Source of the DNA: Thermodesulfobacteriota bacterium
GTDB taxonomy: Bacteria > Desulfobacterota > Desulfarculia > JACQYL01
DNA length: 64,000 bases
Direction of reading: 5' to 3'
Assembly (NCBI GenBank): GCA_963675595.2
Contig: CAXXLZ010000002.1
Coordinates: forward strand, 928,001-992,000
The notes beneath the pieces are model-generated. The model did not search any database. It worked only from the letters and a program-made list of their open reading frames with translations, and had not been told where the DNA came from. A program made the position numbers and the translations under genes. This document shows, piece by piece, positions 11,062 to 57,146 of this stretch (position 1 is the stretch's first letter; the number at the start of each line of letters is the position of its first letter).

Positions 11062-12195
11062 TCAAGGTACGGTCACATCTCTGGCTAAACGGAAGCCTAT
11101 CCTACCGCTGCGATAAGCCTGCAATGCAAAGCCCCTGCGCGCACAACGAAGGCGTCTAGCTGAATTTCGCCAGCTACCCCCTCGATAAACTCGTGCTGTA
11201 CCCGACGATGGACCCGTAGGGTCCGTCACTGAGCCTTCAGGATAATCACCGTACCAATCTTCCACCCACTCGTGTACGTTTCCGTGCATATCATACAGTC
11301 CCCATGCGTTGGGTTTCTTCTTCCCTACCAGAGGCGTTTCCGTACCTGAATTTGCTTCAAACCACGCGTATTCTCCCAGAACACGGTCATCGTTTCCGTA
11401 ACAATATCTTCTTCCAATCCCGCCGGACCTGCAAGCATATTCCCACTCCGCTTCGGTCGGGAGTCTGTATCGTTTCGAGCCTACGGATTCATTCAGTTTG
11501 TTTATGAACTTGCAGCAGTCATCCCAAGAGACCCCTACTGGCGCATCGTCCCACCAATCCTTTGACAAAAGATGAGGCATGGCGTTAAGAAAACTCTTCC
11601 ATTGGAACAATGTCACTTCCGTGGTCTGTAAGTAGAATCCTTTGGTCAGGGTAACCTCGTGCTGAGTCTCCAAACTGCTTCGATCCTCTTCATCCGGTGG
11701 ACTTCCCATCAAGAAAGTCCCGGGAGGAATGTACACGAATTCAAACTTGCTGCCTTTGATTTGGTCGACTATCGAGACCTTGGGCATGTCTATCGGCATC
11801 GCGGACGGCATGGAAGCGGTTGTCGAATCCGGGATGAGCCGAGCCTCAACCACCTGTTTCTCGCCCACTCGCACCTGGATCAAGTCTTTCCAATCTCTGT
11901 ATCCTATCATCTTCATATCGACCCTATGACTTTCTGGAGTAACTTCGGATTTGTGCCCCGGAGTGGTCCCCATGAACTCTCCATCAAGATACCAAAGGGC
12001 TCCAGGCGGTTCACTGCGCACTTCTAGTCCGGTCATTGAAGCCGTGCCCTTATCACCTTGATTGCTCAAAGATGAAACGTCATGGGGACTCACAGGTACT
12101 TCTTCTTGTGACCCAGAAGAACTATCGAAATAGAGGAAAAGCCAAACAAAACTTAAGATCAGGGAATATCTGGCGATATTCGACTTCAAGTTCAT
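11062..12195 (-). CDS. PEGA + FGE-sulfatase (SUMF1/COG1262) protein, TagR-like
   Basis: Signal/TM; PEGA (LEVRSEPPGALWYLDGEFMGTTP); FGE motifs IPPGTFLMGS, RLPTEAEWEYACR, KPNAWGLYDMHGNVHEW, RGGSW and GFRL. Confidence 0.85.
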   Translation of the reverse strand: MNLKSNIARYSLILSFVWLFLYFDSSSGSQEEVPVSPHDVSSLSNQGDKGTASMTGLEVRSEPPGALWYLDGEFMGTTPGHKSEVTPESHRVDMKMIGYRDWKDLIQVRVGEKQVVEARLIPDSTTASMPSAMPIDMPKVSIVDQIKGSKFEFVYIPPGTFLMGSPPDEEDRSSLETQHEVTLTKGFYLQTTEVTLFQWKSFLNAMPHLLSKDWWDDAPVGVSWDDCCKFINKLNESVGSKRYRLPTEAEWEYACRSGGIGRRYCYGNDDRVLGEYAWFEANSGTETPLVGKKKPNAWGLYDMHGNVHEWVEDWYGDYPEGSVTDPTGPSSGTARVYRGGSWRNSARRLRCARRGFALQAYRSGRIGFRLARDVTVP

Positions 12196-12403
12196 ATCTT
12201 CTCCTTCCCATGAAGCCGTCCCGAGAAACCTATTTCGTATAGTCGCATAGCACCGACAAAGCGGTCTTTTGTTCAGGGAGGGCGTAAAATAGTTTATTGA
12301 TATGAGCATAAAATAGGTTAAGGCACGATACTTAATACCACATGTTTCTTAATTTGATGGGTCATCGCTGATAGTGTAGTTAATTCATGCTATTTGCACT
12401 AAT

Positions 12404-14452: not shown

Positions 14453-14490
14453 TGAACCACCCTTTCGATGCATCAGGCACTGGATTGGAT

Positions 14491-14922: not shown

Positions 14923-17900
14923 CTATATACCTGGTACCGGAACAAACAACTCCTTAGGATAAGGGCTTGGTTTATCCCTATATTTTTCAGAAGCTTTCTT
15001 TTTTATTTCATCTTTAACAGATTTTTCAACCAGCCTGACCAAATCGTTTAGTTTTGGATAGCTCTGAATCGATTGCTGGTGGCCTTCCACTGTTTGCTTA
15101 AAATCGATGCTTACTTCTAGACAACAATCCAATGTATCACACTTATCAATTCTATTCTGCAAATCCTTAAGTTCATTTTTGAATATAAATGCATCCCAAT
15201 TAATTATCAAACCTGACATTATAGCGTTTGTTTCTCTAACAAAATAGTCAACTTGCTTATGGGTAACATTAACTTTACTAAGTTTTTTAATAATTTCTTT
15301 CGCATTCAATTTTGCCCGTTTTAGGTACTTTATAGAAGTATATCGATCGTATAATTTTCCGTTTTCGTTATCATTTGTTTTTGATCCGGAAAATATTCCA
15401 GATAAACCTGATAGCCAACCGGTATTTGAACCACTATAATAATCTTGGTTATTTTCGGTAAGTTTTGCAAGCCGAACATCTTCGTCAATAATTTCATATC
15501 CTGATATTAAAACACGGAAAACATCGAGAAACTCTCTGTACATTATCACAGTATCATTACTCTTCTCAGTTTTTCCGTACGTGCTGTCGTACTCACTAAT
15601 TATCGTTTCAAGCTTTTCAAATTCAGACGTTCCGTGATTGGGTTGGTGGATTTCGGCCATCAACTTTTCCACCACACGTTTCATTTCCTGCTTCTTTCCA
15701 ATTCTGATCGATTCTCCCTTCTGCTCCATCCGCTCTTTCGACTGGACCACAGCACGTCTTATCTGATCTGCTTTGGACCGTATCGCCGAACTGGAGCCGA
15801 CCAACTCCTTTTTGCTTTGAAGCAAATTTTCCAAAGCAATTTGGATTCCCTCACACGCTTCCACGCCGCCACACTTGACTGCCTTCGCAGCCAAGTCATC
15901 CAGTTGTCCCAAGAGAATCCCTTCGCGGCGCGACGCCAACCGGCCCTGCACATGCTTCCTCGCCGCCTCATTGAAGGTCGCCAGTTTCTTATATGCGGAC
16001 AACCCTTCGATCTCTTTTAGCACCTTCCCGTAGAGTTCCTCGCCCTGCGCGAACAGTCCTTTATTCTCCGCTTCGTCTGCGGCGTTCAGGAAACCCCTCA
16101 GCCGCTTATGCGCCTCCACCAAGTCTCGATAGCTCTTAGCGGTTTCGGACCGGTATCCTTGGGTACTTGAGTACTTTCGGTATTCCGACACCAGACTGCC
16201 CACCTGTTCCATCTGAGCCGAACCGTATCCCGGCGATTGGAAGGACACCTTTCCCAACATCTCTTCCATCTCCCTCACGATGCGCGCGAGCTCACCCTCT
16301 CGTTCCGCCCGTCCTCTCGATGCGGTCACGGCTTTTTCTATCGATTCCGCTTTGGAGCGGACGGCCGAACTGGAATCCATTAGTTCCTTCTGGCCTTGGA
16401 GCAGCTTCTCCAAATCCGTTCGCACGTCCCCGCACGCTTTGACGCTCCCGCATTCCGAGGCTCTGCTCCCCAAATCTTCCAGTTGCGCCAAAAGCATCCC
16501 TTCGCGGCACGACGCCAACCGGCCCTTCACGTGTTCCCTCGCAGCACCGGTGAAAGTCCCTAGTTCTTGATGACCGGACAGGCTTTGGATTTCTTCCAGC
16601 GCCTTCGCATAGAGTTCCTCGCCCTGATCGAACCGTCCTTGATTCTCCGCCTTTTCCGCCGCATCCAGAAGACCCGTCAGCCGTTTATGGGCCTCGATCA
16701 GGTCTTGGTAGCTCTTCACGGTCTTGGAACTGTACCCCCGGGTACTCGAGTACTTCCCATATTTCGAGACCAGCTCGCCCAGCTTATCCATCTCAGCCGA
16801 ACCGTACCCCGAAGACGTGAAAGACACCTTGCCCAAGACTCCCTTCATCTGCCTCGCGATGTAGACGACATCGCTCTCTTCCTGCGCCCGTCCTCTCGAT
16901 GCGGCCACGGCTTTTTCTATCGATTCCGCTTCGGAGCGAATGGCCGAACTGGAGTCCATTAGTTCCTTTTGGTCTTGGAGCAGTTTCTCCAAATCCGTTT
17001 GCACGTCCCCGCACGCTTTGACGCTTCCGCATTTGGACGCCCTGCTCCCCAAATCCTCTAGTTGTGCCAAAAGCATCCCCTCGCGGCACGACCGTATCCC
17101 GTCCCTCACGTACGCTAATGCCCCTGCGTTGAACGTCGCCATTTCCTTGTGAACGGACAGCCCTCGCATTTCTTCCAGCGCCTTCTCATAGAGCTCCTTG
17201 CCCTGTTCGAACCGTCCTTGATTCTCAGCCTTTTCCGCCGCATCCAGAAGACCCGTCAGCCGTTTATGCGCCTCGGTCAGGTCTTGGTAGTTCTTTGCAG
17301 TCTTGGAACTGTACCCCCGGATGCCCGAGTACTTCCCATATTTCGAGACCAGCTCGCCCAGCTTATCCATCTGAACCGAACCATATCCCGGCGATTGGAA
17401 GGACACCTTTCCCAACAACTCATCCATTTCCCTCACGATGCGCGCGAGCTCACCCTCTCGTTCCGCCCGTCCTCTCGATGCGGCCACGGCTTTTTCTATC
17501 GATTCTGCTTTGGAGCGAATGGCCGAACTGGAAACTACTAGTTCCTTTTGGCCTTGGAGCAGCTTCTCCAAATCCGTTTGCACGTCCCCGCACGCCGTCA
17601 CGCTCCCGCATTTGGACGCCCTGCTCCCCAAATCCTCCAGTTGTGCCAAAAGCATCCCCTCGCGGCACGAAGCCAGCCGGCCCTTCACGTAATCCCTCGC
17701 AGTGCCGTTGAAAGTTTCTAATTCTTTATGACCGGATAGGCTTTGGATTTCTTCCAGCGCCTTCGCATAGAGTTCCTCGCCCTGCTCGAACCGTCCTTGA
17801 TTCTCCGCTTCGTGTGCGCCGTTCAAAATACTCGTCAAACGCTCGTGCCCGGCAAGCAGTTCCTGGTAACTCTTAACCGTTTCGGCCTGATATCCACGGG

Positions 17901-20900
17901 CCCTCGAGTATTGCCCGTATTCCAATACCAGACTGCTCAACCTATCCATCTCGGACGAACCGTACCCCGGAGCTTGGAAAAACACCTTTCCCAACGACTC
18001 CTTCATCTCCCTCACGATCCGGAGCAATTCCCCCTCTTCTTGCGCAAGTTTCTTCGACAAAGCCACGGCTTCTCTCACCGCGTCCGCTTTGGAGCGTACC
18101 ATGGGACTGGAGCCGACTAGATCCTTTTCTCCTCGGATCAACGTCTCCAGAGCCGTTTGGATTCCCTCACACGCCTCCACACCGTCACACTTGGCGCCCT
18201 TCCCGGCCAAGTCCGCCAGTTGTGCCAGAAGCATCCCTTCGCGGCACGACGCCAGCCTGCCTCTTACGTACTCTCCCGCCGCCTCATTAAACGAGGCGAG
18301 TTCCTTGTGGGAAGACAGCTGTACGATTTCCCCAAGGGCCTTCTCGTAGAGTTCCTCGCCCTGCGCGAACCGTCCTTGATTCTCCGCCCTTTCCGCCGCA
18401 TCCAGAAGATCCGTCAGCCGTTTATGCGCCTCGATCAGGTCTTGGCAGCTCTTCGCGGTCTTGGAACTGTACCCCCGGGTGCCCGAGTACTTCCCATACT
18501 CCAATAACAGCTTGGCCAACTTGTTCATCTCATCCGAACCGTATCCCGGCGATTGGAAGGACACCTTCCCCAACATCTCTTCCATCTCCCTCACAGTGCG
18601 GGCCAGCTCTCCCTCTGCCAGCGCCCGTCTTTTCGAAGCGGCCACGGTTTCTCGTACGGCCTTCGCTTTGGACTGAATCGCCGAACTAGTCTCTACCAAG
18701 TCTTTTTGCTCCTCAAGCAGCCACTCCAGGTCAACACGCTCTCGTTCGCAAAATTCCACGCTCGCGCACCCGGACGCTCTACGAAGCAAATTCTCCAGTT
18801 GCCCCAAGAGAATCCCCTCGCGGCACGACCGTATCCCGTCCCTCACGTATGCTAATGCGCCGGCATTGAACGTCGCCATTTCCTTGTGAACGGACAGCCC
18901 TTGCATTTCTTCCACCGCCTTCTCATAGAGCTCCTTGCCCTGCTCGAACCGACCTTGCTTACCGGCCTTGTCCGCTTCGTCAAGTAAACTCGCCATCCGT
19001 TTGTGCGTTTCCAACACTTCTCGGTAGCTCTTGGCCGTTTCGGACCGGTATCCGCGTGTCTCCGAGTATCTCACGTACTCCGAGAGGAGCTTACCCAGCT
19101 TGTCCGTTTCAGCCCCGCCGTACCCCGGCGACTTGAAGGAAATCCTATCCAACGACTCCTTCATCTCCCTCGCGATCCGGAGCAATTCCCACTCTTCCTG
19201 CGCCTTTCTTTTTGACACTGCCGCCGCTGCTCTTATGGCTTCCGCTTTGGCCCGGATCGCCGAGCTGGATTCCACCAACTCCTTTTGGCCTTGGAGCAAC
19301 TTCTCCAGAGTCGTTTGGATTCCCTCACACGCCTCCACCCCGCCACACTTGGCGGCCTTCCCGGCCAGATCGTCCAGTTGTCCCAAAAGCATCCCTTCAC
19401 GACACGACGCCGTGCGGCTCATCACATGCTTCCTTGCCGCGTCGCTGAAGGAAGCCGGCGCCTCATGTCCGGACAGGCTTTCGATTTCCCTGAGCGCCTT
19501 CTCGTACAGCTCCTTGCCCTGCTCGAACCGCCCCTCATTCTCCGCTTCGTCCGCAGCGTTCAAAATACTCGTCAAACGCTCGTACCTAGCAAGCAGTTCC
19601 TGGTAACTTTTAATCGTTTCGGCTCGGTACCCCCGAGTCCCCGAGTACTTCACGTACTCCGAAAACAATTCCCTCACCTTATCCATCTGGGCCGAACCGT
19701 ATCCCGGCGATTGGAAGGACACCTTTCCCAACATCTCTTCCATCTCCCTCACGATGCGGGCCAGCTCTCCTTCTCGTTCCGCCCGTCTTTTGGAAGCGGT
19801 CACGGCTCTTTCTACGGCGTCAGCTTTGGTCCGGACGGCCGAACTGGAGTCCATTAGTTCCTTTTGGTCTTTGAGCAGCTTCTCCAGAGCCGTTTTCAAC
19901 TCCCCGCAGGCTTTGACGCTCCCGCATTTGGACGCCCTGCTCCCCAAATCCTCCAGTTGTGCCAAAAGCATCCCTTCGCGGCACGACGCCAACCGGCCCT
20001 TCACATGCTCGCTTGCCGCGTCGATGAAGGCCGCCGGCGCCTTATAGGCGGACAGTCCTTTGATCTCCCTGAGCGCCCTCTCATAGAGTTCCTCGCCTTG
20101 CGCGAATCGTCCTTGATTCTCCGCCTTTTCCGCCGCATCCAGAAGATCCGTCAGCCGTTCATGGGCCTCGATCAGGTCTTGGCAGCTCTTCGCGGTCTTG
20201 GAACTGTACCCCCGGGTGCCAGAATACTTCCCATATTTCGAGACCAGACTGCCCAGCTCTTCCATCTCAGCCGAACCGTAGCCCGAAGACTTGAAAGATA
20301 CCTTGCCCAAGACTCCCTGCATCTGCCTCGCGATGTAGACGACATCGCTCTCTTCCTGCGCCCGTCTTTTCGACACGACCACGGCTTCTCTTAGGGCTTT
20401 CGCTTTGGAACGGACGGCCGAACTGGAATCCATTAGTTCCTTCTGGCCTTGGAGCAGCTTCTCCAAATCCGTTTGCACGTCCCCGCACGCCGTCACGCTC
20501 CCGCATTCGGAGGCTCTGCTCCGCAAATCCTCCAGTTGCGCCAAAAGCATCCCTTCGCGGCACGACGCCAGCCTGCCTCTTACGTACTCTCCCGCCGCCT
20601 CATTAAACGAGGCGAGTTCCTTGTGGGAAGACAGCTGTACGATTTCCCCAAGGGCCTTCCCGTAGAGTTCCTCGCCCTGCGCGAATCGTCCTTGATTCTC
20701 CGCCCTTTCCGCCGCATCCAGAAGATCCGTCAGCCGTTTATGCGCCTCGATCAGGTCTTGGCAGCTCTTCGCGGTCTTGGAACTGTACCCCCGGGTGCCC
20801 GAGTACTTCCCATATTTCGAGACCAGCCCGCCCAGCTTATCCATCTCAGCCGAACCGTATCCCGGCGATTGGAAGGACACCTTTCCCAAAACTCCCTCCA

Positions 20901-22038
20901 TCTGCCTCGCGATGTAGACGACATCGCTCTCTTCCTGCGCCCGTCTTCTCGATGCGGCCACGGCTTTTTCTATCGATTCCGCTTTGGAGCGGACGGCCGA
21001 ACTGGAGTCCATTAGTTCCTTTTGGTCTTTGAGCAGCTTCTTCAAATCCGTTTGCACGTCCCCGCAGGCTTTGACGCTCCCGCATTCGGAGGCTCTGCTC
21101 CGCAAATCCTCCAGTTGCGCCAAAAGCATCCCTTCGCGGCACGACGCCAACCGGCCCTTCACATGCTTGTTTGCCGCGTCGATGAAGGTCGCCGGCGCCT
21201 TATGGGCCGACATCCTTTGAATTTCTTTCAGGGCCTTTTCGTAGAGTTTTTCGCCCTGCTCGAATCGTCCTTGCTTCTCGGCCTTGTCGCCTTCGTCAAG
21301 AAAGCCGCTCAGCCGTTTGTGTGTCTTCAACAGGTCTCGGTAGCTCTGGGCGAGTTCGACCCGGTAGCCGTCCGCACCTGAATGTTCCTCGTATTCGGAA
21401 ACCAGCTCGCCCAGTCTTTCGATCTCCGCTCTCCCATAGCCGGGCGATTTGAAGGATATGTTCCCCAAAGACGCTTCCATGTCTCTCGCGATCGGGAGCA
21501 AGTCTCCCGCTTGGTGAACACGCCTTTTCGAGGCGGCCACGAGTTTTTCTCTTAAGTCCGGCGGCACACTACTACCAATCTTTGCTCCAACAACTATTTC
21601 TTGACTATCGATCCATATCAAAACCGGAAATATAAGTCCGGCGTCAAATACTTTATCGAGGTTACTGTATTCCAATGTCAGGAATAATCGATTTTTTGTT
21701 CCGAACTCCTCAATATCCTTTTTCCAGCGTATCCAGTTTTCACGTGGAGAAACGGGAACCGCAATAACGGATAATGCCTGGTCTTTCTTGGCCAGGGACT
21801 CAATAGATTTGAGTGTTCTTCTATCCATCTCTTCTTCAGGAATAAAGAAGAATACGGCGGTTAACGGTGATTTGAAAACATCTTTTGATTGTATGGTCTG
21901 TCCTTTAATATCCTTAAAAGTGAAAAAATTAACGCGCTGGCCTTCATTGACTATCGCAAGAAGTTCGCCATATCCAATAAAAATAAATAAACATGAAGCT
22001 AAAACTATATATTTTATTATAATATATATATATTTCAT
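14923..22038 (-). CDS. Giant secreted repeat protein 1 (2371 aa): signal, redoxin-like N-domain without CxxC, ten 193-aa helical repeats, divergent AT-rich tip
   Basis: Uninterrupted ORF; the SF.S.GYG...QGRF.QG.ELY..AL...SCREG...C.....C unit occurs ten times; N-domain FTFKDIKGQT...VFFF...P.LIWIDS resembles a thioredoxin fold. Confidence 0.85.
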   Translation of the reverse strand: MKYIYIIIKYIVLASCLFIFIGYGELLAIVNEGQRVNFFTFKDIKGQTIQSKDVFKSPLTAVFFFIPEEEMDRRTLKSIESLAKKDQALSVIAVPVSPRENWIRWKKDIEEFGTKNRLFLTLEYSNLDKVFDAGLIFPVLIWIDSQEIVVGAKIGSSVPPDLREKLVAASKRRVHQAGDLLPIARDMEASLGNISFKSPGYGRAEIERLGELVSEYEEHSGADGYRVELAQSYRDLLKTHKRLSGFLDEGDKAEKQGRFEQGEKLYEKALKEIQRMSAHKAPATFIDAANKHVKGRLASCREGMLLAQLEDLRSRASECGSVKACGDVQTDLKKLLKDQKELMDSSSAVRSKAESIEKAVAASRRRAQEESDVVYIARQMEGVLGKVSFQSPGYGSAEMDKLGGLVSKYGKYSGTRGYSSKTAKSCQDLIEAHKRLTDLLDAAERAENQGRFAQGEELYGKALGEIVQLSSHKELASFNEAAGEYVRGRLASCREGMLLAQLEDLRSRASECGSVTACGDVQTDLEKLLQGQKELMDSSSAVRSKAKALREAVVVSKRRAQEESDVVYIARQMQGVLGKVSFKSSGYGSAEMEELGSLVSKYGKYSGTRGYSSKTAKSCQDLIEAHERLTDLLDAAEKAENQGRFAQGEELYERALREIKGLSAYKAPAAFIDAASEHVKGRLASCREGMLLAQLEDLGSRASKCGSVKACGELKTALEKLLKDQKELMDSSSAVRTKADAVERAVTASKRRAEREGELARIVREMEEMLGKVSFQSPGYGSAQMDKVRELFSEYVKYSGTRGYRAETIKSYQELLARYERLTSILNAADEAENEGRFEQGKELYEKALREIESLSGHEAPASFSDAARKHVMSRTASCREGMLLGQLDDLAGKAAKCGGVEACEGIQTTLEKLLQGQKELVESSSAIRAKAEAIRAAAAVSKRKAQEEWELLRIAREMKESLDRISFKSPGYGGAETDKLGKLLSEYVRYSETRGYRSETAKSYREVLETHKRMASLLDEADKAGKQGRFEQGKELYEKAVEEMQGLSVHKEMATFNAGALAYVRDGIRSCREGILLGQLENLLRRASGCASVEFCERERVDLEWLLEEQKDLVETSSAIQSKAKAVRETVAASKRRALAEGELARTVREMEEMLGKVSFQSPGYGSDEMNKLAKLLLEYGKYSGTRGYSSKTAKSCQDLIEAHKRLTDLLDAAERAENQGRFAQGEELYEKALGEIVQLSSHKELASFNEAAGEYVRGRLASCREGMLLAQLADLAGKGAKCDGVEACEGIQTALETLIRGEKDLVGSSPMVRSKADAVREAVALSKKLAQEEGELLRIVREMKESLGKVFFQAPGYGSSEMDRLSSLVLEYGQYSRARGYQAETVKSYQELLAGHERLTSILNGAHEAENQGRFEQGEELYAKALEEIQSLSGHKELETFNGTARDYVKGRLASCREGMLLAQLEDLGSRASKCGSVTACGDVQTDLEKLLQGQKELVVSSSAIRSKAESIEKAVAASRGRAEREGELARIVREMDELLGKVSFQSPGYGSVQMDKLGELVSKYGKYSGIRGYSSKTAKNYQDLTEAHKRLTGLLDAAEKAENQGRFEQGKELYEKALEEMRGLSVHKEMATFNAGALAYVRDGIRSCREGMLLAQLEDLGSRASKCGSVKACGDVQTDLEKLLQDQKELMDSSSAIRSEAESIEKAVAASRGRAQEESDVVYIARQMKGVLGKVSFTSSGYGSAEMDKLGELVSKYGKYSSTRGYSSKTVKSYQDLIEAHKRLTGLLDAAEKAENQGRFDQGEELYAKALEEIQSLSGHQELGTFTGAAREHVKGRLASCREGMLLAQLEDLGSRASECGSVKACGDVRTDLEKLLQGQKELMDSSSAVRSKAESIEKAVTASRGRAEREGELARIVREMEEMLGKVSFQSPGYGSAQMEQVGSLVSEYRKYSSTQGYRSETAKSYRDLVEAHKRLRGFLNAADEAENKGLFAQGEELYGKVLKEIEGLSAYKKLATFNEAARKHVQGRLASRREGILLGQLDDLAAKAVKCGGVEACEGIQIALENLLQSKKELVGSSSAIRSKADQIRRAVVQSKERMEQKGESIRIGKKQEMKRVVEKLMAEIHQPNHGTSEFEKLETIISEYDSTYGKTEKSNDTVIMYREFLDVFRVLISGYEIIDEDVRLAKLTENNQDYYSGSNTGWLSGLSGIFSGSKTNDNENGKLYDRYTSIKYLKRAKLNAKEIIKKLSKVNVTHKQVDYFVRETNAIMSGLIINWDAFIFKNELKDLQNRIDKCDTLDCCLEVSIDFKQTVEGHQQSIQSYPKLNDLVRLVEKSVKDEIKKKASEKYRDKPSPYPKELFVPVPGI
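15710..21500 (-). repeat. Ten tandem 579-bp coding repeats
   Basis: Shadow ORFs recur at 579-bp spacing (e.g. 20267/20846); boundaries approximate. Confidence 0.9.
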
Positions 22039-22197
22039 GTAAATATCGGAGATTAGACCATTATATTAGGATATTCAGGAGCTAATTTATTTAACGTATG
22101 GCAATAACTTTTTACATCAAGGATGAGGTATCTCCACAGACAGGTATAAATAGTTACGTGCCCCGACCCTCCCGCCGCGAATAACCCCCAACGCTCA

Positions 22198-22329
22198 GGC
22201 CCGGGTTCTTCGCTCATGGGCTTCGCCGCATGCGCAGGCTCCGCCCTCTTCGCTCAGAACCTCGGCCCTCACCTGCAAGGAAAACCGCACAGGGTAAAGG
22301 GGTAAAAGGGATCAGGGGTAAGACCTCAG
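22198..22329 (-). repeat. 132-bp 3' element, copy A (IMH-like pyrimidine tract + GC hairpin)
   Basis: Identical to 24517-24648; covers the last codons of the gene and the downstream sequence. Confidence 0.9.
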
Positions 22330-24306
22330 CAGACGCGCGCCGAGGTTGCCGCCGCGGACGTCCGGCGTGAGGCCGCCGCGATTCGCCGAACGGCAGTACC
22401 CCGCGTAGTAGTACCAGCCGCCGCCGCGAAGAACCCGGTAGGAGCCTGAAGCGGGACCCGTGGGATCCGTAACGGATCCACTGGGATAGTCGCCGAACCA
22501 GTCTTCCACCCACTCCCAGACGTTTCCGTGCATGTCGTACAACCCCCAGGCATTGGCCGCCTTTTGAGCCACGGGATGTGTCATGTCTCCGGAATTGTGA
22601 CAATACCACCCCATGGCGTACAGGTTCGGATCATAACCGCAGACGGTTTCCGTGATGCCGCCATTGGCAAAGGCCGTCGTGGAACCCGCCCGAGCCGCGC
22701 ACTCCCACTCCGCTTCCGTGGGCAACCGGTACGTGCCCTCGCCCAGTTGATTCATTGCCGCCACAAAATCCTGGACGTCGTCCCACGATACAGATTCCAC
22801 GGGACAATCATCTCCACAAGAACTGAACGAGGAGGGATTGCTCCCCATGACCGCTTTCCACTGCCCCTGCGTAATCTCCGTGGTCTGCAGGTAATATCCT
22901 TGGGTCAGCGTCACCTGGTGTTGCGTCTCATCGCTGTCCCGGCCCGGCTCATCCGTGGGACTGCCCATGGTGAACGTGCCCGGCGGGATATATTTGAAGG
23001 TCATGCCGAGAGAGTTGGTGAACGTGTCCGGTGGCGACGTTTGCAGGAATTTCGACCAGGCCTGTGTCGGTCGGGGGGACCCGGAAAACGGCGCTTCCAC
23101 GCATCTTTCCAGCGAATCCATGCCGGCTGTGCCGGAACCCGAAAAGCTCATGGTCAGGTGGTACGGTTTGCCCCCTAACTCATCCGCATCGATGCCGTCG
23201 GCGGCGTTGGAATCCAGGAACACGTAGTAGTCCGCCAGGTTCGAGGTTCCGATGGCAACAGCCGAACCCGTGTCGTAGGTTTGGACGTAGTAGTTCATCT
23301 GCGCGGCGCCGCAGGAAGGAGACTTCCAGATCCCGTGATTGGCCGGGGTCGAGCCCAGGCCGTTGGTCCTGGATATGACGTAGGTCGCCGGGGAGCCGAA
23401 CCGGGTCAATACGGCGTTCCCGTGACTTCCGTCCGTAAACGTGACGGACAGATGGTGTCCCATTCCGGCGTAGTCGCTCACATCGATGCCGTCTTGAATA
23501 TCGGCGTCGATGAACACGTAGTACTCCGTCAGATCGGGCGTGGCCAGGATCAAGGCCGAACCGTCCACATAACTCTGGATGTAGAAGTTCATGGAAAGCC
23601 CCGCGTCCTTCCATATCCCGTCGTAGATTACCGACCACGAACCGACCTGAATTTGAAAGCTCCTGGGCACGGAAGTCCGGTCATCGCTATCCCTTACGCT
23701 GCAGGTCGCCGTATAAGAGCCCCCCTGCGCGTAGGTGTGACTGGTTTGTCCGTCGGAACGGATGTCGGAGGTCCCGTCGTCGAACCGAAAAACGTACTCT
23801 ACAATGGGCGATCCATAGGGGTCGTATCCCGAACAGGTGCAATCGACCTGCAACGGTGCGTTCCCCGACGCGGGTGAACAAGAAAACGCCGAGACTACGG
23901 GATCCTCGCAAACTTCACCGATTTCCGGAACATAGGTGCAACCGGAGGGGCCCAGATTGGCACGAATCTCTATCGGCTCTAACACGGTGGAGCTCCCGTC
24001 GGCATGAAAGGCCGTGCAGACCGCGAGAAACTCGCCGGCGCCCAAATACGTGTGCGCCACATAACCTCGGGAGGAGGATTCAAAAGAGCCGTCGCCGAAG
24101 TCGAAAAAGTATTCAACCGCGCCCGGAGCCGTATCGGGTACGGCGCAGCCGAAGGATACCGTCAACGGAGCCGGACCGGCCGCCGGATCGGGACGAACGT
24201 TGAAAGCCGAGGTTGCAAAAGACACCGGTGGACTCAGCGTCGAGGCAACGAGGCATCCAAAGACAGTAAAAAGGAGCATTCTCGGTAACGAATAGGGTGA
24301 TCTCAT
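22312..24306 (-). CDS. Secreted 2xPKD + 2x unknown ~95-aa domain + FGE-sulfatase (CLec-fold) protein A; candidate DGR target
   Basis: Likely start MRSPYSL with GGAGAG RBS; PKD motifs G.APLTVSF, YFFDFGDG and HTY..G.Y; FGE motifs RLPTEAEWE, NAWGLYDMHGNVWEW and RGGGW. Confidence 0.85.
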   Translation of the reverse strand: MRSPYSLPRMLLFTVFGCLVASTLSPPVSFATSAFNVRPDPAAGPAPLTVSFGCAVPDTAPGAVEYFFDFGDGSFESSSRGYVAHTYLGAGEFLAVCTAFHADGSSTVLEPIEIRANLGPSGCTYVPEIGEVCEDPVVSAFSCSPASGNAPLQVDCTCSGYDPYGSPIVEYVFRFDDGTSDIRSDGQTSHTYAQGGSYTATCSVRDSDDRTSVPRSFQIQVGSWSVIYDGIWKDAGLSMNFYIQSYVDGSALILATPDLTEYYVFIDADIQDGIDVSDYAGMGHHLSVTFTDGSHGNAVLTRFGSPATYVISRTNGLGSTPANHGIWKSPSCGAAQMNYYVQTYDTGSAVAIGTSNLADYYVFLDSNAADGIDADELGGKPYHLTMSFSGSGTAGMDSLERCVEAPFSGSPRPTQAWSKFLQTSPPDTFTNSLGMTFKYIPPGTFTMGSPTDEPGRDSDETQHQVTLTQGYYLQTTEITQGQWKAVMGSNPSSFSSCGDDCPVESVSWDDVQDFVAAMNQLGEGTYRLPTEAEWECAARAGSTTAFANGGITETVCGYDPNLYAMGWYCHNSGDMTHPVAQKAANAWGLYDMHGNVWEWVEDWFGDYPSGSVTDPTGPASGSYRVLRGGGWYYYAGYCRSANRGGLTPDVRGGNLGARLLRSYP

Positions 24307-24516
24307 GCGCTCTCCCAAAGGCCCAAAGATTAACGGATCACGGTGCGATTGGATTTGCCCCGCTATCTCCCTTTCCAGTCGGGTTAGTGAAACCATCATG
24401 GACCGACTAGCTTCGGACGGGATTTCATACGGGGTCAAATATGGCTGTAAATTCAGCCTCGCTTCGCTCGGCTTTCTTTTCCCTTTATCCTTACGCCGGG
24501 AACGTCTCCCCGTTCC

Positions 24517-24648
24517 GGCCCGGGTTCTTCGCTCATGGGCTTCGCCGCATGCGCAGGCTCCGCCCTCTTCGCTCAGAACCTCGGCCCTCACCTGCAAGGA
24601 AAACCGCACAGGGTAAAGGGGTAAAAGGGATCAGGGGTAAGACCTCAG
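24517..24648 (-). repeat. 132-bp 3' element, copy B
   Basis: Identical to 22198-22329. Confidence 0.9.
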
Positions 24649-26634
24649 AAGGCGCAAACCGAGGTGGCCGTCGCGGGTGACCGGCGCGCGGATGAAGCGA
24701 AAGGCCGAACGACAGTACAACGCGTAGTTGTCCCAGCTGCCGCCGCGACACACCCGGTGGGAGCCCGACGACGGACCCGTGGGATCCGTTACGGATCGAC
24801 TCGGATAAGTGCCGTACCAGTCCTGACACCACTCCAACACATTGCCGTGCATGTCGTAGAGTCCCCAGGCATTGGCCGACAAGCTGCCCGTAGGAATCGT
24901 CTTTCCTCGGTCCTCACCTTCCGGACAGCCGGACATCGGATAATCCCCGTCATAATTCGCATCGTCGGTTGACAGACAGTCTCCAAAAGCGAAAGGAGTG
25001 GTGGAGCCCGCCCTTGCGGCGTACTCCCACTCCGCTTCCGTGGGCAACCGGTACGTGCCCTCGCCCAGTTGATTCATTGCCGCCACAAAATCCTGGACGT
25101 CGTCCCACGATACAAATTCCACGGGACAATCATCTCCACAAGAACTGAACCAGGAGGGATTGCTCCCCATGACCGCTTTCCACTGCCCCTGCGTAATCTC
25201 CGTGGTCTGCAGGTAATATCCTTGGGTCAGCGTCACCTGGTGTTGCGTCTCATCGCTGTCCCGGCTCGGCTCATCCGTGGGACTGCCCATGGTGAACGTG
25301 CCCGGCGGGATATATTTGAAGGTCATGCCGAGAGAGTTGGTGAACGTGTCCGGTGGCGACGTTTGCAGGAATTTCGACCAGGCCTGTGTCGGTCGGGGGG
25401 ACCCGGAAAACGGCGCTTCCACGCATCTTTCCAGCGAATCCATGCCGGCTGTGCCGGAACCCGAAAAGCTCATGGACAGGTGGTACGGTTTGCCCCCTAA
25501 CTCATCCGCATCGATGCCGTCGGCGGCGTTGGAATCCAGGAACACGTAGTAGTCCGCCAGGTTCGAGGTTCCGATGGCAACAGCCGAACCCGTGTCGTAG
25601 GTTTGGACGTAGTAGTTCATCTGCGCGGCGCCGCAGGAAGGAGACTTCCAGATCCCGTGATTGGCCGGGGTCGAGCCCAGGCCGTTGGTCCTGGATATGA
25701 CGTAGGTCGCCGGGGAGCCGAACCGGGTCAATACGGCGTTCCCGTGACTTCCGTCCGTAAACGTGACGGACAGATGGTGTCCCATTCCGGCGTAGTCGCT
25801 CACATCGATGCCGTCTTGAATATCGGCGTCGATGAACACGTAGTACTCCGTCAGATCGGGCGTGGCCAGGATCAAGGCCGAACCGTCCACATAACTCTGG
25901 ATGTAGAAGTTCATGGAAAGCCCCGCGTCCTTCCATATCCCGTCGTAGATTACCGACCACGAACCGACCTGAATTTGAAAGCTCCTGGGCACGGAAGTCC
26001 GGTCATCGCTATCCCTTACGCTGCAGGTCGCCGTATAAGAGCCCCCCTGCGCGTAGGTGTGACTGGTTTGTCCGTCGGAACGGATGTCGGAGGTCCCGTC
26101 GTCGAACCGAAAAACGTACTCTACAATGGGCGATCCATAGGGGTCGTATCCCGAACAGGTGCAATCGACCTGCAACGGTGCGTTCCCCGACGCGGGTGAA
26201 CAAGAAAACGCCGAGACTACGGGATCCTCGCAAACTTCACCGATTTCCGGAACATAGGTGCAACCGGAGGGGCCCAGATTGGCACGAATCTCTATCGGCT
26301 CTAACACGGTGGAGCTCCCGTCCGCATGGAAGGCCGTGCAGACTGCGAGGAACTCCCCGGCCCCTATATACGTATGCTCGGCCAAGCCGCGGGTGGAGAA
26401 TTCAAAAAACCCGTCACCGAAGTCGAAAAAGTATTCCGTCGCACCTTGAATCGTTTCAGGTACCGCGCAGTCGAAGGAGACCGTCAACGGTGCCGGACCC
26501 GCCGCCGGATCGGGACGGGCAAAAAGGCCTTCGTTCTCCGAGGACGATGCGACGGTTCCAGCGAAGGCGACAAAGGTTGCGAGCAAGAGGATCAGCATAC
26601 GAAGGCCTCTGGGAAGCGCGTCTCTTGTACTCAT
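24631..26634 (-). CDS. Secreted 2xPKD + 2x unknown domain + FGE-sulfatase protein B; candidate DGR target
   Basis: Likely start MSTRDAL with AGGAG RBS; central ~1.3 kb nearly identical to gene A (offset 2322); different C-terminal half of the FGE domain. Confidence 0.85.
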   Translation of the reverse strand: MSTRDALPRGLRMLILLLATFVAFAGTVASSSENEGLFARPDPAAGPAPLTVSFDCAVPETIQGATEYFFDFGDGFFEFSTRGLAEHTYIGAGEFLAVCTAFHADGSSTVLEPIEIRANLGPSGCTYVPEIGEVCEDPVVSAFSCSPASGNAPLQVDCTCSGYDPYGSPIVEYVFRFDDGTSDIRSDGQTSHTYAQGGSYTATCSVRDSDDRTSVPRSFQIQVGSWSVIYDGIWKDAGLSMNFYIQSYVDGSALILATPDLTEYYVFIDADIQDGIDVSDYAGMGHHLSVTFTDGSHGNAVLTRFGSPATYVISRTNGLGSTPANHGIWKSPSCGAAQMNYYVQTYDTGSAVAIGTSNLADYYVFLDSNAADGIDADELGGKPYHLSMSFSGSGTAGMDSLERCVEAPFSGSPRPTQAWSKFLQTSPPDTFTNSLGMTFKYIPPGTFTMGSPTDEPSRDSDETQHQVTLTQGYYLQTTEITQGQWKAVMGSNPSWFSSCGDDCPVEFVSWDDVQDFVAAMNQLGEGTYRLPTEAEWEYAARAGSTTPFAFGDCLSTDDANYDGDYPMSGCPEGEDRGKTIPTGSLSANAWGLYDMHGNVLEWCQDWYGTYPSRSVTDPTGPSSGSHRVCRGGSWDNYALYCRSAFRFIRAPVTRDGHLGLRLLRSYP

Positions 26635-26860
26635 GAGGGTCTCCTGTGCGTTTTCGTTTTTCGGAACGCCCGAAAGGGGTAGAAGCGGAAATTTCATGTC
26701 CGTTTTCTTTTGCCCAAAACGGATGGAGTGGATTCTCGGAGAAAAAACGAGCGACCGATGAACGTATCTGCTCACTGCCGAGCCTCTCTGATCATTCGGA
26801 TCATTCAAACTGCGACGCCCTCGTCGGAGGTTCCGGGTTTCCGGATGGTCGCACATGAGG

Positions 26861-29800
26861 TTAGTGATTCGACTTTGCGCGTTGCCTCGCAGCCAGGAGA
26901 TCGGCAAGGGATTCTCGTGTAAGCTGTTCGGCCTTGCGGTTCCATTCGGCGTCCCCGTAATAACTCACGGAAACCTCGTTCGCGAACGCTTTGCCCGTGT
27001 GTAAATCCACCAGGGCGGTGTATATTTTGGAATCAATGGTCGGACTGTACGGATTTTCTGCGGTGAGTCGGACCGCGTAGGAAATGACTGCGTCCGCCCC
27101 TGCCGCCGCTCCCAAGCTTCGCATGGTTTCCGTGTCGGGTCGCGGATCGTTTTCAGACCATCTGTGAGTCCAGACACCGGTTGACCGGGTCTTTTCATTC
27201 AAGATCGGAGTACCAACGAGCGCGGGGTGGAATCCGGCGAAATCGTACGCGGAGGCAACGGCCGTGATTTTGACAAACCCGGGCAAGATTTCAGATAGAG
27301 CTTTGAGAAAGTAATTCAGAAGGCGGTCGTGTTCTGTCGGAAGATCAAAGGGCAGGATCACCAGCTTGACGTTGGAATCCACAGCCGGTTTGACGGCCGG
27401 CCGCTGATCGTCGGCTTTCACAGCGGCAGCCGGTTCAGGCTTTTTCCCGATCGATACGGAAACATGATGCGATCTTGCGCGTTGCCTCGCGGCAAGAAAA
27501 TCGGCAAAGGATACTCGTGTGAGTTGTTCTGCCTTGCGGTTCCATTCGGCGTCTCCGTAATAACTCACGGAAACCTCGTTCACGAACGCTTCGCCCGTAT
27601 GTACATTCACCAGGGCGGTGCATATCTTGGAATCAATGGTCGGGCTGTACGGATTTTCTGCGGAGAGTCGGACCGCGTAGGAAATGACTGCGTCCGCCCC
27701 TGCCGCCGCGCCCAAGCTTCGCATGGCTTCCGTGTCGGGTCGTGGATCGTTTTCAGACCATATGTGGTTCAAGACACCGCTTGACCGGGTCTTTTCATTC
27801 AAGTTCGGAGTGTCAGCGAGCGCAGGGTGGAATCCGGCGAAATCATACGCGGAGGCAACGGCCGTGATGTCGGCATGACCGGGCAAAATTTCAGATAGGG
27901 CTTTGAGAAAGTACTTCAGATGGCGGTCGTGTTCTGTCGGAAGATCAAAGGGCAGGATCACCAGCTTGACGTTGGAATCCACAGCCGGTTTGACGGCCGG
28001 CCGCTGATCGTCGGCTTTCAGAGCGGCAGCCGGTTCGGGCTCTTTTCCCATCGATATGGGAGACGGCTCGAAAGCGAGCAAATCCCCCTCTTGCTGAGCC
28101 CGTTTTCTTGACACGGCCACGGCTTCTCTTACAGCTTCCGCTTTGGCCCGGATCGCCGGGCTACAATCCAACAGGTCCTTTTTGCCTTGAAGTAACTTCT
28201 CCAGTGTCGCTTGCACCTGCCCGCATGCTTCCAAGCTCTCGCAACTGGTCCCCTTCCCGGCCAGGTCTTCCAGTTTTCCCAGAAGAATCCCTTCTCGGCA
28301 GGACGCCATGCGACTGGTCACATGCGCTCGTGCCGCCTCGTTGAACGAGGAGAGTTCTCTGCAAGCGGACAGCTGTTCGATCTCCCCAAGGGCCCTCTCG
28401 TACAGCTCTTTTCCCTGCTCGAAACGACCCTGTTTCTCGGCCTTGTTCGCAGCGTCCAGCAAACCCGTCAGCCGTTTATGCGCCTCCAACAAGTCTCGAT
28501 AGCTCTTAACGGTTTCGGACTGGTATCCGCGTGTCTCCGAGTATCTCACGTACTCCGAGATGAGCTTCCCCAGCTCGTCCGTTTCAGCCCCGCCGTACCC
28601 CGGCGACTTGAAGGAAATCCTATCCAACGACTCCTTCATCTCCCTCGCGATCCGGAGCAATTCCCACTCTTCCTGCGCCTTTCTTTTAGACACTGCCGCC
28701 GCTGCTCTTATGGCTTCCGCTTTGGCCCGGATCGCCGAGCTGGATTCCACCAACTCCTTTTGGCCTTGGAGCAACTTCTCCAGAGCAGTGTGCACTGCCC
28801 CGCATGCTTCAACACTCCTACACCTGGAAGCGTCACCGGCCAAATCCTCCAGTTGCGCCAAAAGCATCCCTTCGCGGCACGACGCCAGCCTGCCTCTTAC
28901 GTACTCTCCCGCCGCCTCATTAAAGGAGGCGATTTCCTTGTGGGAAGACAGCTGTTCGATTTCCCCAAGGGCCTTTTCGTAGAGTTCCTCGCCCTGCTCG
29001 AACCGTCCTTGATTCTCAGCCTTTTCCGCCGCATCCAGAAGACCCGTCAGCCGTTTATGGGCCTCGATCAGATCATTATAGCTTTTGGCGGTTTCGGGCT
29101 TGTATCCTTGGGTACTCGAGTACTTCCCGTATTTCGATACCAGACTGCCCAGCTCATTCATCTCATCCGAACCGTATCCCGGCGATTGGAAGGACACCTT
29201 TCCAAACAACTCATCCATTTCCCTCACGATGCTGGCCAGCTCTCCCTCTGCCAGCGCCCGTCTTTTGGAAGCGGCCACGGCTCTTTCTAAGGCTTCAGCT
29301 TTGGTCCGGACGGCCGAACTGGAATCCATTAGTTCCTTTTGGCCTTGGAGCAGCTTCTCCAGAGCCGTTTTCAACTCCCCGCACGCTTTGACGCTCCCGC
29401 ATTCCGAGGCCCTGCTCCCCAAATCCTCCAAGCGCCCCAAGAGGACCCCCTCGCTGCAGGACTGCATGCGACTCCTCACATGTCGTTGTGCCGCGTCGAT
29501 GAAGGTCGCCGGCGCCTTGTAGGCGGACAGGCCTTCGACCTCCATGAGCGCCTTCTCGTAGAGTTCCTCGCCCTGATCGAACCGTCCCTGATTCTCCGCC
29601 TTTTCGGCCGCATCCAGAAGCTCCGTCAGCCGTTTATGTCCCTCGATCAGATCATTATAGCTTTTGGCGGTTTCGGCCTGGTATCCTTGGGTACTCGAGT
29701 ACTTCCCGTATTTCGAGACCAGACTGCCCAGCTTATCCATCTCAGCCGAACCGTATCCCGGCGATTGGAAGGACACCTTTCCCAACAACTCATCCATTTC

Positions 29801-32800
29801 CCTCACAGTGCGGGCCAGCTCACCCTCTCGTTCCGCCCGTCCTCTCGATGCGGCCACGGCTTCTCTCACGGCTTCGGCTTTGGACCGAATGGCCGAACTG
29901 GAGTCCATTAGTTCCTTTTGGTCTTTGAGCAGCTTCTCCAAATCCGTTTGCACGTCCCCGCACGCTTTGACGCTTCCGCATTTGGACGCACCACCGGCCA
30001 AATCCTCCAAGCGCCCCAAGAGGACCCCCTCGCTGTAGGACTGCATGCGACTCCTCACATGCCGTTGTGCCGCATCATTGAACGTCGCCATTTCCTTGTG
30101 AACGGACAGCCCTCGCATTTCTTCCAGCGCCTTCTCATAGAGCTCCTTGCCCTGTTCGAACCGTCCTTGATTCTCAGCCTTTTCCGCCGCATCCAGAAGA
30201 CCCGTCAGCCGTTTATGCGCCTCGGTCAGGTCTTGGTAGTTCTTTGCAGTCTTGGAACTGTACCCCCGGATGCCCGAGTACTTCCCATATTTCGAGACCA
30301 GCTCGCCCAGCTTATCCATCTCAGCCGAACCGTATCCCGGCGATTGGAAGGACACCTTTCCCAACAACTCATCCATTTCCCTCACGATGCGGGCCAGCTC
30401 TCCTTCTCGTTCCACCCGTCCTCTCGATGCGGCCACGGCTTCTCTCACAGCTTCGGCTTTGGACCGGACGGCCGAACTGGAATCCACCACGGCCTTCCGG
30501 CTTAGGAGCAGGTTGTCCAGCGCCGTTTTCACTTCCCCGCACGCCGCCACGCTCCCGCATTCGGAGGCTCTACTCCCCAAATCCTCCAGTTGCGCCAAAA
30601 GCATCCCTTCGCGGCACGACGCCAGCCTGCCTCTTACGTACTCTCCCGCCGCCTCATTAAACGAGGCGAGTTCCTTGTGGGAAGACAGCTGTTCGATTTC
30701 CCCAAGGGCCTTCTCGTAGAGTTCCTCGCCCTGCGCGAACCGTCCTTGATTCTCCGCCCTTTCCGCCGCATCCAGAAGATCCGTCAGCCGTTTATGCGCC
30801 TCGATCAGGTCTTGGCAGCTCTTCGCGGTCTTGGAACTGTACCCCCGGGTGCCCGAGTACTTCCCATACTCCAATAACAGCTTGGCCAACTTGTTCATCT
30901 CATCCGAACCGTATCCCGGCGATTGGAAGGACACCTTCCCCAACATCTCTTCCATCTCCCTCACAGTGCGGGCCAGCTCTCCCTCTGCCAGCGCCCGTCT
31001 TTTCGAAGCGGCCACGGTTTCTCGTACGGCCTTCGCTTTGGACTGAATCGCCGAACTAGTCTCTACCAAGTCTTTTTGCTCCTCAAGCAGCCACTCCAGG
31101 TCAACACGCTCTCGTTCGCAAAATTCCACGCTCGCGCACCCGGACGCTCTACGAAGCAAATTCTCCAGTTGCCCCAAGAGAATCCCCTCGCGGCACGACC
31201 GTATCCCGTCCCTCACGTATGCTAATGCGCCGGCATTGAACGTCGCCATTTCCTTGTGAACGGACAGCCCTTGCATTTCTTCCACCGCCTTCTCATAGAG
31301 CTCCTTGCCCTGCTCGAACCGACCTTGCTTACCGGCCTTGTCCGCTTCGTCAAGTAAACTCGCCATCCGTTTGTGCGTTTCCAACACTTCTCGGTAGCTC
31401 TTGGCCGTTTCGGACCGGTATCCGCGTGTCTCCGAGTATCTCACGTACTCCGAGAGGAGCTTACCCAGCTTGTCCGTTTCAGCCCCGCCGTACCCCGGCG
31501 ACTTGAAGGAAATCCTATCCAACGACTCCTTCATCTCCCTCGCGATCCGGAGCAATTCCCACTCTTCCTGCGCCTTTCTTTTCGACACTGCCGCCGCTGC
31601 TCTTATGGCTTCCGCTTTGGCCCGAATCGCCGAGCTGGATTCCACCAACTCCTTTTGGCCTTGGAGCAACTTCTCCAGAGTCGTTTGGATTCCCTCACAC
31701 GCCTTCACGCCGCCACACTTGGCGGCCTTCCCGGCCAGATCGTCCAGTTGTCCCAAAAGAATCCCTTCACGACACGACGCCGTGCGGCTCATCACATGCT
31801 TCCTTGCCGCGTCGCTGAAGGAAGCCGGCACCTCATGTCCGGACAGGCTTTCGATTTCCCTGAGCGCCTTCTCGTACAGCTCCTTGCCCTGCTCGAACCG
31901 CCCCTCATTCTCCGCTTCGTCCGCAGCGTTCAAAATACTCGTCAAACGCTCGTACCTAGCAAGCAGTTCCTGGTAACTTTTAATCGTTTCGGCTCGGTAC
32001 CCCCGAGTCCCCGAGTACTTCACGTACTCCGAAAACAATTCCCTCACCTTATCCATCTGGGCCGAACCGTATCCCGGCGATTGGAAGGACACCTTTCCCA
32101 ACATCTCTTCCATCTCCCTCACGATGCGTGCCAGCTCTCCTTCTCGTTCCGCCCGTCTTTTGGAAGCGGTCACGGCTCTTTCTACGGCGTCAGCTTTGGT
32201 CCGGACGGCCGAACTGGAGTCCATTAGTTCCTTTTGGTCTTTGAGCAGCTTCTCCAGAGCCGTTTTCAACTCCCCGCAGGCTTTGACGCTCCCGCATTTG
32301 GACGCCCTGCTCCCCAAATCCTCCAGTTGTGCCAAAAGCATCCCTTCGCGGCACGACGCCAACCGGCCCTTCACATGCTCGCTTGCCGCGTCGATGAAGG
32401 CCGCCGGCGCCTTATAGGCGGACAGTCCTTTGATCTCCCTGAGCGCCCTCTCATAGAGTTCCTCGCCCTGCGCGAATCGTCCTTGATTCTCCGCCTTTTC
32501 CGCCGCATCCAGAAGATCCGTCAGCCGTTCATGGGCCTCGATCAGGTCTTGGCAGCTCTTCGCGGTCTTGGAACTGTACCCCCGGGTGCCAGAATACTTC
32601 CCATATTTCGAGACCAGACTGCCCAGCTCTTCCATCTCAGCCGAACCGTAGCCCGAAGACTTGAAAGATACCTTGCCCAAGACTCCCTGCATCTGCCTCG
32701 CGATGTAGACGACATCGCTCTCTTCCTGCGCCCGTCTTTTCGACACGACCACGGCTTCTCTTAGGGCTTTCGCTTTGGAACGGACGGCCGAACTGGAATC

Positions 32801-43200: not shown

Positions 43201-43215
43201 GAGCTTCTCTCTTCC

Positions 43216-43869: not shown

Positions 43870-43892
43870 ACTTCCTCCCAACCCGGACGAGC

Positions 43893-54463: not shown

Positions 54464-57146
<2,683 letters not shown>

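Follow-up and report, generated by a model that had tools for sequence, protein, structure and literature searches.

We analyzed a 64,000-nucleotide (nt) stretch of contig CAXXLZ010000002.1 (C2) of a Thermodesulfobacteriota bacterium, hereafter the window, and found that two adjacent paralogous genes, A and B, are very probably remote targets of a diversity-generating retroelement (DGR) encoded elsewhere on the chromosome. The reverse transcriptase (RT) of this element would rewrite the variable region (VR) of each gene, and the products would be exported ligand binders encoded within a type VI secretion system (T6SS) locus. Judged by sequence, the RT, the Avd protein and the adenine pattern relating the template repeats (TRs) to the VRs belong to a DGR, and we regard the system as a genuine DGR with several targets, found in a genomic setting that is new. 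A and B are placed between fha (upstream) and tssJ (downstream). A first-pass annotation made from the letters of the window had proposed tandem PKD-C-type lectin (CLec) genes inside a T6SS locus. Both genes were indeed found by Pfam to encode two PKD domains and an FGE-sulfatase domain at the C-terminus, T6SS core genes surround them, and the coordinates that the annotation gave for the genes and their VRs were right to within a few bases.

In a codon alignment of the last 44 codons of A and B, the encoded amino acid differed at 16 codons, and all 16 were altered solely at positions 1 and/or 2, in agreement with the claim of the first-pass annotation that amino-acid differences spare the third codon position. 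Another 6 codons differed at position 3 alone, which reproduced its count of synonymous differences. When the last 200 nt of A and of B were used as blastn queries against the whole genome, we obtained four additional VR-like copies on C2 (V885, V903, V3250 and V4724, near 885.8, 903.3, 3250.5 and 4724.7 kb), making six VR copies with A and B, of which five are intact, and two AAC-rich template repeats, TR1 and TR2. The annotation had suggested a genome search for a predicted TR near a DGR RT; TR1 lies beside such an RT, and the TR that it had reconstructed matched TR2, compared by eye, at 27/27 positions of its first piece and 43/44 of its second. Changes between VR and TR were counted over the 124 nt of homology, and adenines were compared with all other template positions by the Fisher test. 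Relative to TR1, VR A was changed at 23/36 adenines and 3/88 other positions (p = 6.5e-13) and VR B at 24/36 and 9/88 (p = 5.9e-10), as expected from the adenine mutagenesis that had been proposed for them. The same held for V3250, which lies in cis to TR1 (23/36 and 1/88; p = 7.9e-15), for V903 (21/36 and 2/88; p = 3.5e-12) and V885 (18/36 and 7/88; p = 6.0e-07), all against TR1, and for V4724 against its cis template TR2 (20/34 and 2/90; p = 4.1e-12). VR A had 5 non-adenine mismatches to TR2. Ordinary divergence or positive selection among paralogues, with no role for a DGR, could be held responsible for the codon pattern, since the entire C-terminal 390 nt of A and B have diverged, beyond the VR. 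This is extremely improbable given the concentration of template differences on adenines (p ~1e-10 to 1e-13 for A and B) and the complete set of RT, Avd and TR in the genome.

The full DGR cassette was located on the minus strand of C2 at 3.248-3.253 Mb, in the order target, HRDC-domain protein, Avd, RT and TR1, and is ~2.3 Mb distant from A and B. The annotation had placed the missing parts of the system outside the window, and TRs, RT, Avd and HRDC were all found elsewhere in the genome. The RT carries the motifs IGNLTSQ and YMDD; we take the [I/V/L]GxxxSQ motif to be a marker of DGR RTs. A genome search with Pfam RVT_1 gave 21 matches, mostly copies of group II introns, and the 336-amino acid (aa) open reading frame (ORF) beside TR1 was the sole DGR-type RT found. 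Its identity to RTs encoded after HRDC and Avd, next to FGE-type targets, in 6 other genomes is 39-50%. The Avd protein, encoded between HRDC and the RT, scored 101.1 bits with NF033474 (cut-off 80) and E = 1.4e-18 with Pfam bAvd. The RTs of the group II intron type include seven equal-scoring copies of 504 aa and five of 623 aa, one example (C2:3246368-3247027) being 1.3 kb from TR1.

Two further loci appear as altered copies of the cassette. At C2:4724298-4726798 there is a duplicate that holds only a target gene (700 aa) and TR2, which follows the target by ~270 nt; the 1.77-kb HRDC-Avd-RT segment is gone, and when the two loci are compared its absence maps to one junction point. Only four positions distinguish TR1 from TR2, and the VR of V4724 bears the variants private to TR2. 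V903 (C2:902770-903346) is the remnant of an FGE gene, 5'-truncated and frameshifted, with a diversified VR, and its 3' flank is of the TR type for ~185 nt. A diversified VR followed by a TR-type flank is what VR/TR recombination in a lost cassette would leave, and by sequence V903 looks like a third DGR cassette collapsed in this way. The three other targets in the genome are caspase-PEGA-FGE proteins, and a kinase-STAND NTPase is encoded next to one of these.

VR A is equal to TR1 at 85/88 non-adenine positions (96.6%) despite the fact that the 250 nt upstream of it are only 58-66% identical to any paralogue, indicating that the template overwrote the VR and that shared ancestry by itself does not explain the match. 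Each cis VR holds the private non-adenine variants of its own TR, and the flow from TR to VR therefore went on after the cassette was duplicated. VR A is mixed: its 5' variant is that of TR1, and its 3' variant that of TR2 or of an earlier form of TR1; from these positions we cannot say which of TR1 and TR2 was its last writer. The last 20 nt of template homology in VR A are identical to the TR. At each of the six synonymous sites that separate A from B, one of the two genes (B at five sites, A at one) departs from TR1 and TR2 alike at a base that is not a template adenine, and by sequence these sites reflect point-mutation decay or older divergence, mostly of B. The first-pass annotation had attributed them to two templates or older divergence; two TRs do exist and the second explanation fits, but the two TRs were ruled out as the cause because the sites depart from both of them.

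Some observations, in turn, speak against A and B being rewritten at present. The CGC-for-CGG mismatch of VR A is common to three other VRs, both cis VRs among them, and some VR positions have therefore not been overwritten since the TRs last changed. Five of the nine non-adenine changes of VR B fall in the last 20 nt of template homology. We saw no present-day diversification, although the public data, which consist of assembled contigs of 4 runs from one study, are uninformative on activity; in a comparison with window positions 22150-24900, VR A was unchanged in X1 and X2, and the single divergent contig over VR A (38 differences) equaled the paralogue V3250 at all 8 listed positions. A and B could thus be fossil targets that the DGR wrote once and no longer acts on, with ordinary evolution of paralogues now. 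The mismatches of B, compared with three in A, the lack of visible population variation in the contigs and the erosion of the system apparent in the degraded V903 cassette and the RT-less TR2 copy are all compatible with this. We nevertheless consider it unlikely, as the genome retains an intact RT, Avd and TR1, neither the end of VR A (last 20 nt) nor its 135-nt flank is damaged, the non-adenine positions of VR A follow TR1 next to sequence that is ~60% identical to the paralogues, and transfer outlasted the duplication of the cassette. Since its 3' homology is undamaged, A is probably a competent, live target. B, having five non-adenine changes in the last 20 nt and nine overall, is probably a decaying one, and the two hypervariable receptors may in practice be one.

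Directly after VR A there is a 135-nt element that includes the last 13 nt of gene A, and a copy follows VR B. Genome-wide it occurs solely after the five intact VRs, at 83-100% identity, whereas the TRs have a different 3' flank, common to both. This placement is as expected for a target signal resembling the initiation of mutagenic homing (IMH) site, for which the element is a candidate. Its fold as DNA was not better than that of shuffled sequences (z = -0.61), and it gave no significant hairpin. From established DGR knowledge, we propose that the RT with Avd would copy TR RNA to cDNA, misreading adenines, and that this cDNA would supplant the 124-nt VR that each target carries at its 3' end. 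Guidance to the target probably comes from the conserved VR end together with the 135-nt element behind it. Rewriting would hit ~20 codons at the tip of the FGE/CLec domain, for which the TR codons permit, by arithmetic, about 10^19-10^20 protein variants. With their likely starts, A and B each have a single N-terminal hydrophobic segment and no further membrane segment, so export of both is expected; their site of action should be the periplasm or the cell surface, where they would serve as ligand binders.

The FGE domain of A had its best sequence match in the PDB with TvpA (2y3c; E = 1.8e-33, vs ~1e-19 for FGE enzymes). An AlphaFold2 model of this domain, built from 31 sequences, reached a predicted local distance difference test score (pLDDT) of 89.5, and its best fold match was again 2y3c (TMq 0.84, root-mean-square deviation 2.6). 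The variable stretch of A aligned with the same C-terminal segment of TvpA, which we take to be the VR of TvpA. Pfam PF03781, the sequence matches and the modeled fold assign A and B to the FGE/CLec DGR variable proteins of the TvpA class, the kind of target that had been suggested for them. We also matched FGE relatives among genome contigs (358 stretches) and kept 79 loci. HRDC, Avd and RT directly followed the target in 6/79 of these. Across 25 relatives taken from other genomes, it was the adenine codons of the TR that showed ~3 bits of entropy, and the arginines and glycines between them were invariant; the whole subfamily therefore looks DGR-targeted.

The longest ORF of gene A encodes 765 aa, but its start is likely at 24306 (664 aa), on the basis of a Shine-Dalgarno-like sequence preceding 24306 and the lone N-terminal hydrophobic segment; for gene B (longest ORF 758 aa) the likely start is at 26634, giving 667 aa. 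Pfam matches in A were PKD, PKD_4 and FGE-sulfatase (E = 4.7e-42), and B matched FGE-sulfatase with E = 6.5e-47. The two genes are ~100% identical in DNA across ~1.3 kb in the middle (99.3% in the block 400-1000 nt ahead of the VR end) and diverged at the N-terminus and across the last ~390 nt, with an identity of just 60.6% in the 250 nt preceding the VR. We noted that the 250 nt ahead of VR B (24770-25020) are 81-84% identical to V4724 and V885 (C2:4724 kb and 885 kb) and 61% identical to the counterpart in A (22450-22700), despite the ~100% identity of A and B further upstream; DGR target paralogues therefore seem to recombine C-terminal half-domains. A tandem domain of ~95 aa without a Pfam family (residues ~328-520 of A; window 23020-23650) is greatly expanded across genes, with 56 matches in the source genome; two relatives belonging to its family have 13 and 35. 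A Protein Atlas search with this central domain of A gave scores that were all <0.9. The features of the window and of the remote DGR loci are collected in the table.

Table. Location of genes A and B, their variable regions and flanking elements, the remote DGR components and the neighboring T6SS genes
Feature	Location	Strand	Basis or description
Gene A, exported, PKD-PKD + tandem no-family domain + FGE/CLec	window 22312..24609	-	ORF, translation, Pfam
VR A	window 22325..22448	-	124 nt homologous to TR1 and TR2
3' element directly after VR A	window 22190..22324	-	135 nt; candidate target-recognition (IMH-like)
Gene B, paralogue of gene A	window 24631..26907	-	ORF, translation, Pfam
VR B	window 24644..24767	-	124 nt homologous to TR1
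3' element copy after VR B	window 24511..24643	-	98.5% identical to A copy over 133 nt
Cis target gene V3250	C2 3252769..3250481	-	762 aa; caspase, PEGA, FGE domains
DGR RT	C2 3249446..3248436	-	336-aa ORF, RVT_1 E=1.2e-19
TR1	C2 3248427..3248304	-	AAC-rich repeat, directly downstream of RT
TR2	C2 4724421..4724298	-	AAC-rich repeat
PEGA + FGE-sulfatase protein without VR, non-variable TagR-like candidate	window 11062..12309	-	Pfam
TssJ domain behind ~550-aa N-terminal extension	window 12404..14473	-	T6SS-SciN E=2.7e-13; TIGR03352 37 bits (cut-off 31.6)
Giant repeat protein 1, downstream neighbor of A	window 14923..22038	-	2371 aa; translation
Giant repeat protein 2, upstream neighbor of B	window 26861..35038	-	2725 aa
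Fha (37193-38638) and TagF (38632-39531)	window 37193..39531	-	Pfam FHA, TagF_N; TIGR03373
TssM, TssL, TssK	window 39538..45281	-	Pfam IcmF-related_N, DotU, T6SS_VasE
PpkA-like Ser/Thr kinase-fold protein, one transmembrane segment, periplasmic PEGA	window 46607..48259	-	Pfam Pkinase, PEGA
PP2C-type phosphatase, PppA-like	window 49660..50379	-	NF033484 E=1.7e-49, below its cut-off
VgrG, ClpV, TssG, TssF, TssE (~60100-60399), PD40 protein, Hcp (~62192-62590), TssC	window 51702..63990	-	Pfam; PF04965 and PF05638 genome searches

The genes around A and B form one series on the minus strand, which runs from TssC through Hcp, a PD40 protein, TssE, TssF, TssG, ClpV and VgrG to the PP2C phosphatase, the PpkA-like protein, TssK, TssL, TssM, TagF, Fha and an unassigned 392-aa protein, and continues with giant protein 2, B, A, giant protein 1, the TssJ fusion and the PEGA-FGE protein without a VR. 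The 13 T6SS core genes (tssA-M, hcp, vgrG and clpV) are all single-copy and are found on this strand, within the window or immediately next to it. TssC, F, G, J, K, L and M, ClpV and VgrG were identified in the window, and TssA, TssB, TssE and Hcp each had one match in the genome, at C2:988-994 kb (TssA and TssB just past the window), indicating that this is the only T6SS of the genome. The tssJ gene is far from tssK-L-M, vs the order tssJ-K-L-M in the closest relative found, and the extension of TssJ has weak coiled-coil (SMC-like) matches. The probes for the VR region matched the PEGA-FGE protein at its conserved FGE core alone. Both giant proteins consist of more than ten helical repeats of ~193 aa with an N-terminal hydrophobic anchor and a domain that looks thioredoxin-like, and neither matched a Pfam family above the cut-off. 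Their repeats are spaced ~579 nt in the genes and are confined to this locus in the genome, and the gene ends are AT-rich. A third copy of their N-terminal domain was observed at 35242-35736, just upstream of giant 2. In the PpkA-like protein, whose periplasmic part is one PEGA domain, HGE and SWG stand at the positions of HRD and DFG. Kinases carry HRD and DFG motifs, and by its sequence the PpkA-like protein may be a pseudokinase.

We infer a functional tie of A and B to the T6SS from gene position and domain type in one genome. Exported FGE-domain proteins are here encoded together with a PpkA-like protein, a PP2C phosphatase, Fha and TagF, the context in which TagR is found, and by analogy with this FGE-domain protein the function that we prefer, though at well below even odds, is that A and B would sense variable inputs and so activate the T6SS. 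The PEGA-FGE gene (11062-12309) is at least as good an analogue of TagR as A or B. A predicted complex of the FGE domain of A (residues 520-765) with the periplasmic PEGA domain of the PpkA-like protein (residues 472-550) scored 0.14, the mark being 0.34, a value that carries no verdict on binding. We find it doubtful, though conceivable, that the DGR reprograms the T6SS, with the tip of A (formerly also that of B) as a changeable sensor, located in the periplasm or at the surface, feeding a PpkA-like/Fha/TagF switch or as a changeable immunity protein of the FGE type.

A number of findings count against such a role. The PpkA-like protein is without the usual catalytic motifs, and the phosphorylation relay from TagR to PpkA may therefore not run as in Pseudomonas. 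The immediate flanks of A and B are the two giant repeat proteins and not T6SS core genes, and the link to the T6SS is one of position, observed in a single genome. No T6SS core gene was present within 6 kb of the closest FGE relatives at any of the 79 loci (0/79); rows from the PEGA-FGE query, which matched every FGE domain, were dropped before this count. Only one FHA-domain match and one ClpB/ClpV-like match were found near the FGE genes of these loci, 78 of which match the FGE domain only, the nominal full-length match (L027) being fragmented. TssK homologues occur in 37/401 genomes of the phylum, the source genome included. No FGE gene was present in the T6SS flanks of 13 of the others, which were covered by 21 stretches no longer than 20 kb, some of them limited by a contig end or one-sided, and four other genomes of the order gave no match to TssM or to a DGR-type RT with our queries. 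There was no full-length orthologue of A or B among the 5 genomes of the order, and a metagenome scan with residues 100-530 of A, its N-terminal two thirds, found no relative.

These results leave room for A, B and the giant proteins being a passenger module, an independent surface, adhesion or kin-recognition unit without a secretion role, and this we see as a serious possibility that falls somewhat short of even. The giant genes that bracket A and B are AT-rich at their ends and distinct in composition and, as locus-unique neighbors, could equally be the real partners of A and B. FGE genes occurred in none of the related T6SS loci examined; in the closest TssK relative, tssJ is directly ahead of tssK and the module is lacking on the 16-kb contig. 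The other DGR targets of the genome, the caspase-PEGA-FGE proteins, are likewise not linked to a T6SS. What argues for a T6SS role instead is that A and B are placed on the same strand between two essential T6SS genes, fha and tssJ, and that the cluster encodes, besides A and B, an FGE protein that does not vary and a PpkA-like protein with a PEGA domain, matching the TagR-PpkA pair in domain type.

If A and B do serve the T6SS, they could alternatively be variable immunity proteins of the Tsi3 kind, whose diversified site would neutralize varied incoming or self effectors in the periplasm. A widespread family of FGE-domain T6SS immunity proteins is reported to act by effector binding (bioRxiv 10.1101/2021.05.21.445229), and export is predicted for A as well as B. 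We nonetheless regard this as improbable, for no recognizable effector adjoins A or B, and their giant neighbors have N-terminal hydrophobic anchors and no toxin family above the Pfam cut-off; an effector that escaped recognition may lie beside them. A and B are also ~660 aa long with PKD and other domains, vs the single-domain architecture of Tsi3.

Phage receptor-binding proteins, surface lipoproteins, pilus tips and putative conflict-system sensors are known to be diversified by DGRs. T6SS firing and immunity are thought to use fixed, genetically encoded recognition. A DGR target among core T6SS genes, beside the kind of FGE and kinase parts that control firing in Pseudomonas, would be a first hint of something new, suggesting that the timing of T6SS firing, or what the system resists, could be adjusted by targeted hypermutation. 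If true, the neighbors or signals that trigger firing could change by evolution within generations, or new incoming effectors could be captured; either role would couple adaptive recognition to a contact-dependent weapon. The first-pass annotation did not know such a coupling to be described. In line with this, no DGR-T6SS pairing turned up in the full texts searched; in the co-mentioning papers that were read, one term stood only in the reference list or the DGR passage was about pili. Even without the T6SS link, the genome offers a clean natural case of a DGR under turnover, in which one RT and two templates serve five targets across megabases, one target is visibly dropping out and one cassette looks to have collapsed through VR/TR recombination.

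Among known systems, TvpA of Treponema denticola (PDB 2y3c) is closest to A and B in its variable domain, being their best PDB match by sequence and by fold with the variable stretch in the same C-terminal segment. Unlike TvpA, A and B have two PKD domains and a tandem domain without a family, are 2.3 Mb from the RT and lie inside a T6SS cluster. The DGR of Bordetella phage BPP-1 (mtd-avd-TR-brt) is the prototype. Our system shares with it the adenine-specific transfer from TR to VR, an Avd and RT pair, a target gene that carries its VR at the 3' end, and a distinct sequence after the VR that is absent after the TR. It differs in its order (target-HRDC-Avd-RT-TR), with the TR downstream of the RT, and in its two TRs and five intact targets, with targeting in trans over megabases. 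Among multicellular bacteria with multi-target DGRs, Thiohalocapsa PB-PSB1 (PNAS 2024, PMC10907252) is reported to have several CLec targets, duplicated cassettes, incomplete loci and candidate remote trans targets, the targets being fused to caspase-like and other conflict-system domains. Several targets, duplicated cassettes, incomplete loci, candidate remote targets and caspase-PEGA-FGE targets are features that the source genome has in common with it. In contrast to Thiohalocapsa, for which the word 'secretion' is absent from the article text, two targets here stand in a T6SS cluster and are without conflict-system effector domains.

TagR of the Pseudomonas aeruginosa H1-T6SS (Nat Commun 2026, PMC13713981) has an FGE domain that is reported, or proposed, to bind the periplasmic domain of PpkA, and thus to serve protein binding and not catalysis. 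Like TagR, A and B are exported FGE-sulfatase-domain proteins in a cluster with PpkA, a phosphatase, Fha and TagF, and our comparison is one of context and domain type. TagR, unlike A and B, is not described there as hypervariable, and the PpkA-like protein here, with its PEGA periplasmic domain and atypical catalytic motifs, differs from the partner of TagR. With the FGE-type immunity family (Tsi3), which is reported to be non-enzymatic and protein-binding, A and B share an FGE domain and a genetic link to a T6SS. They differ from that family in that no adjoining effector was recognized, and in being multidomain proteins diversified by a DGR.

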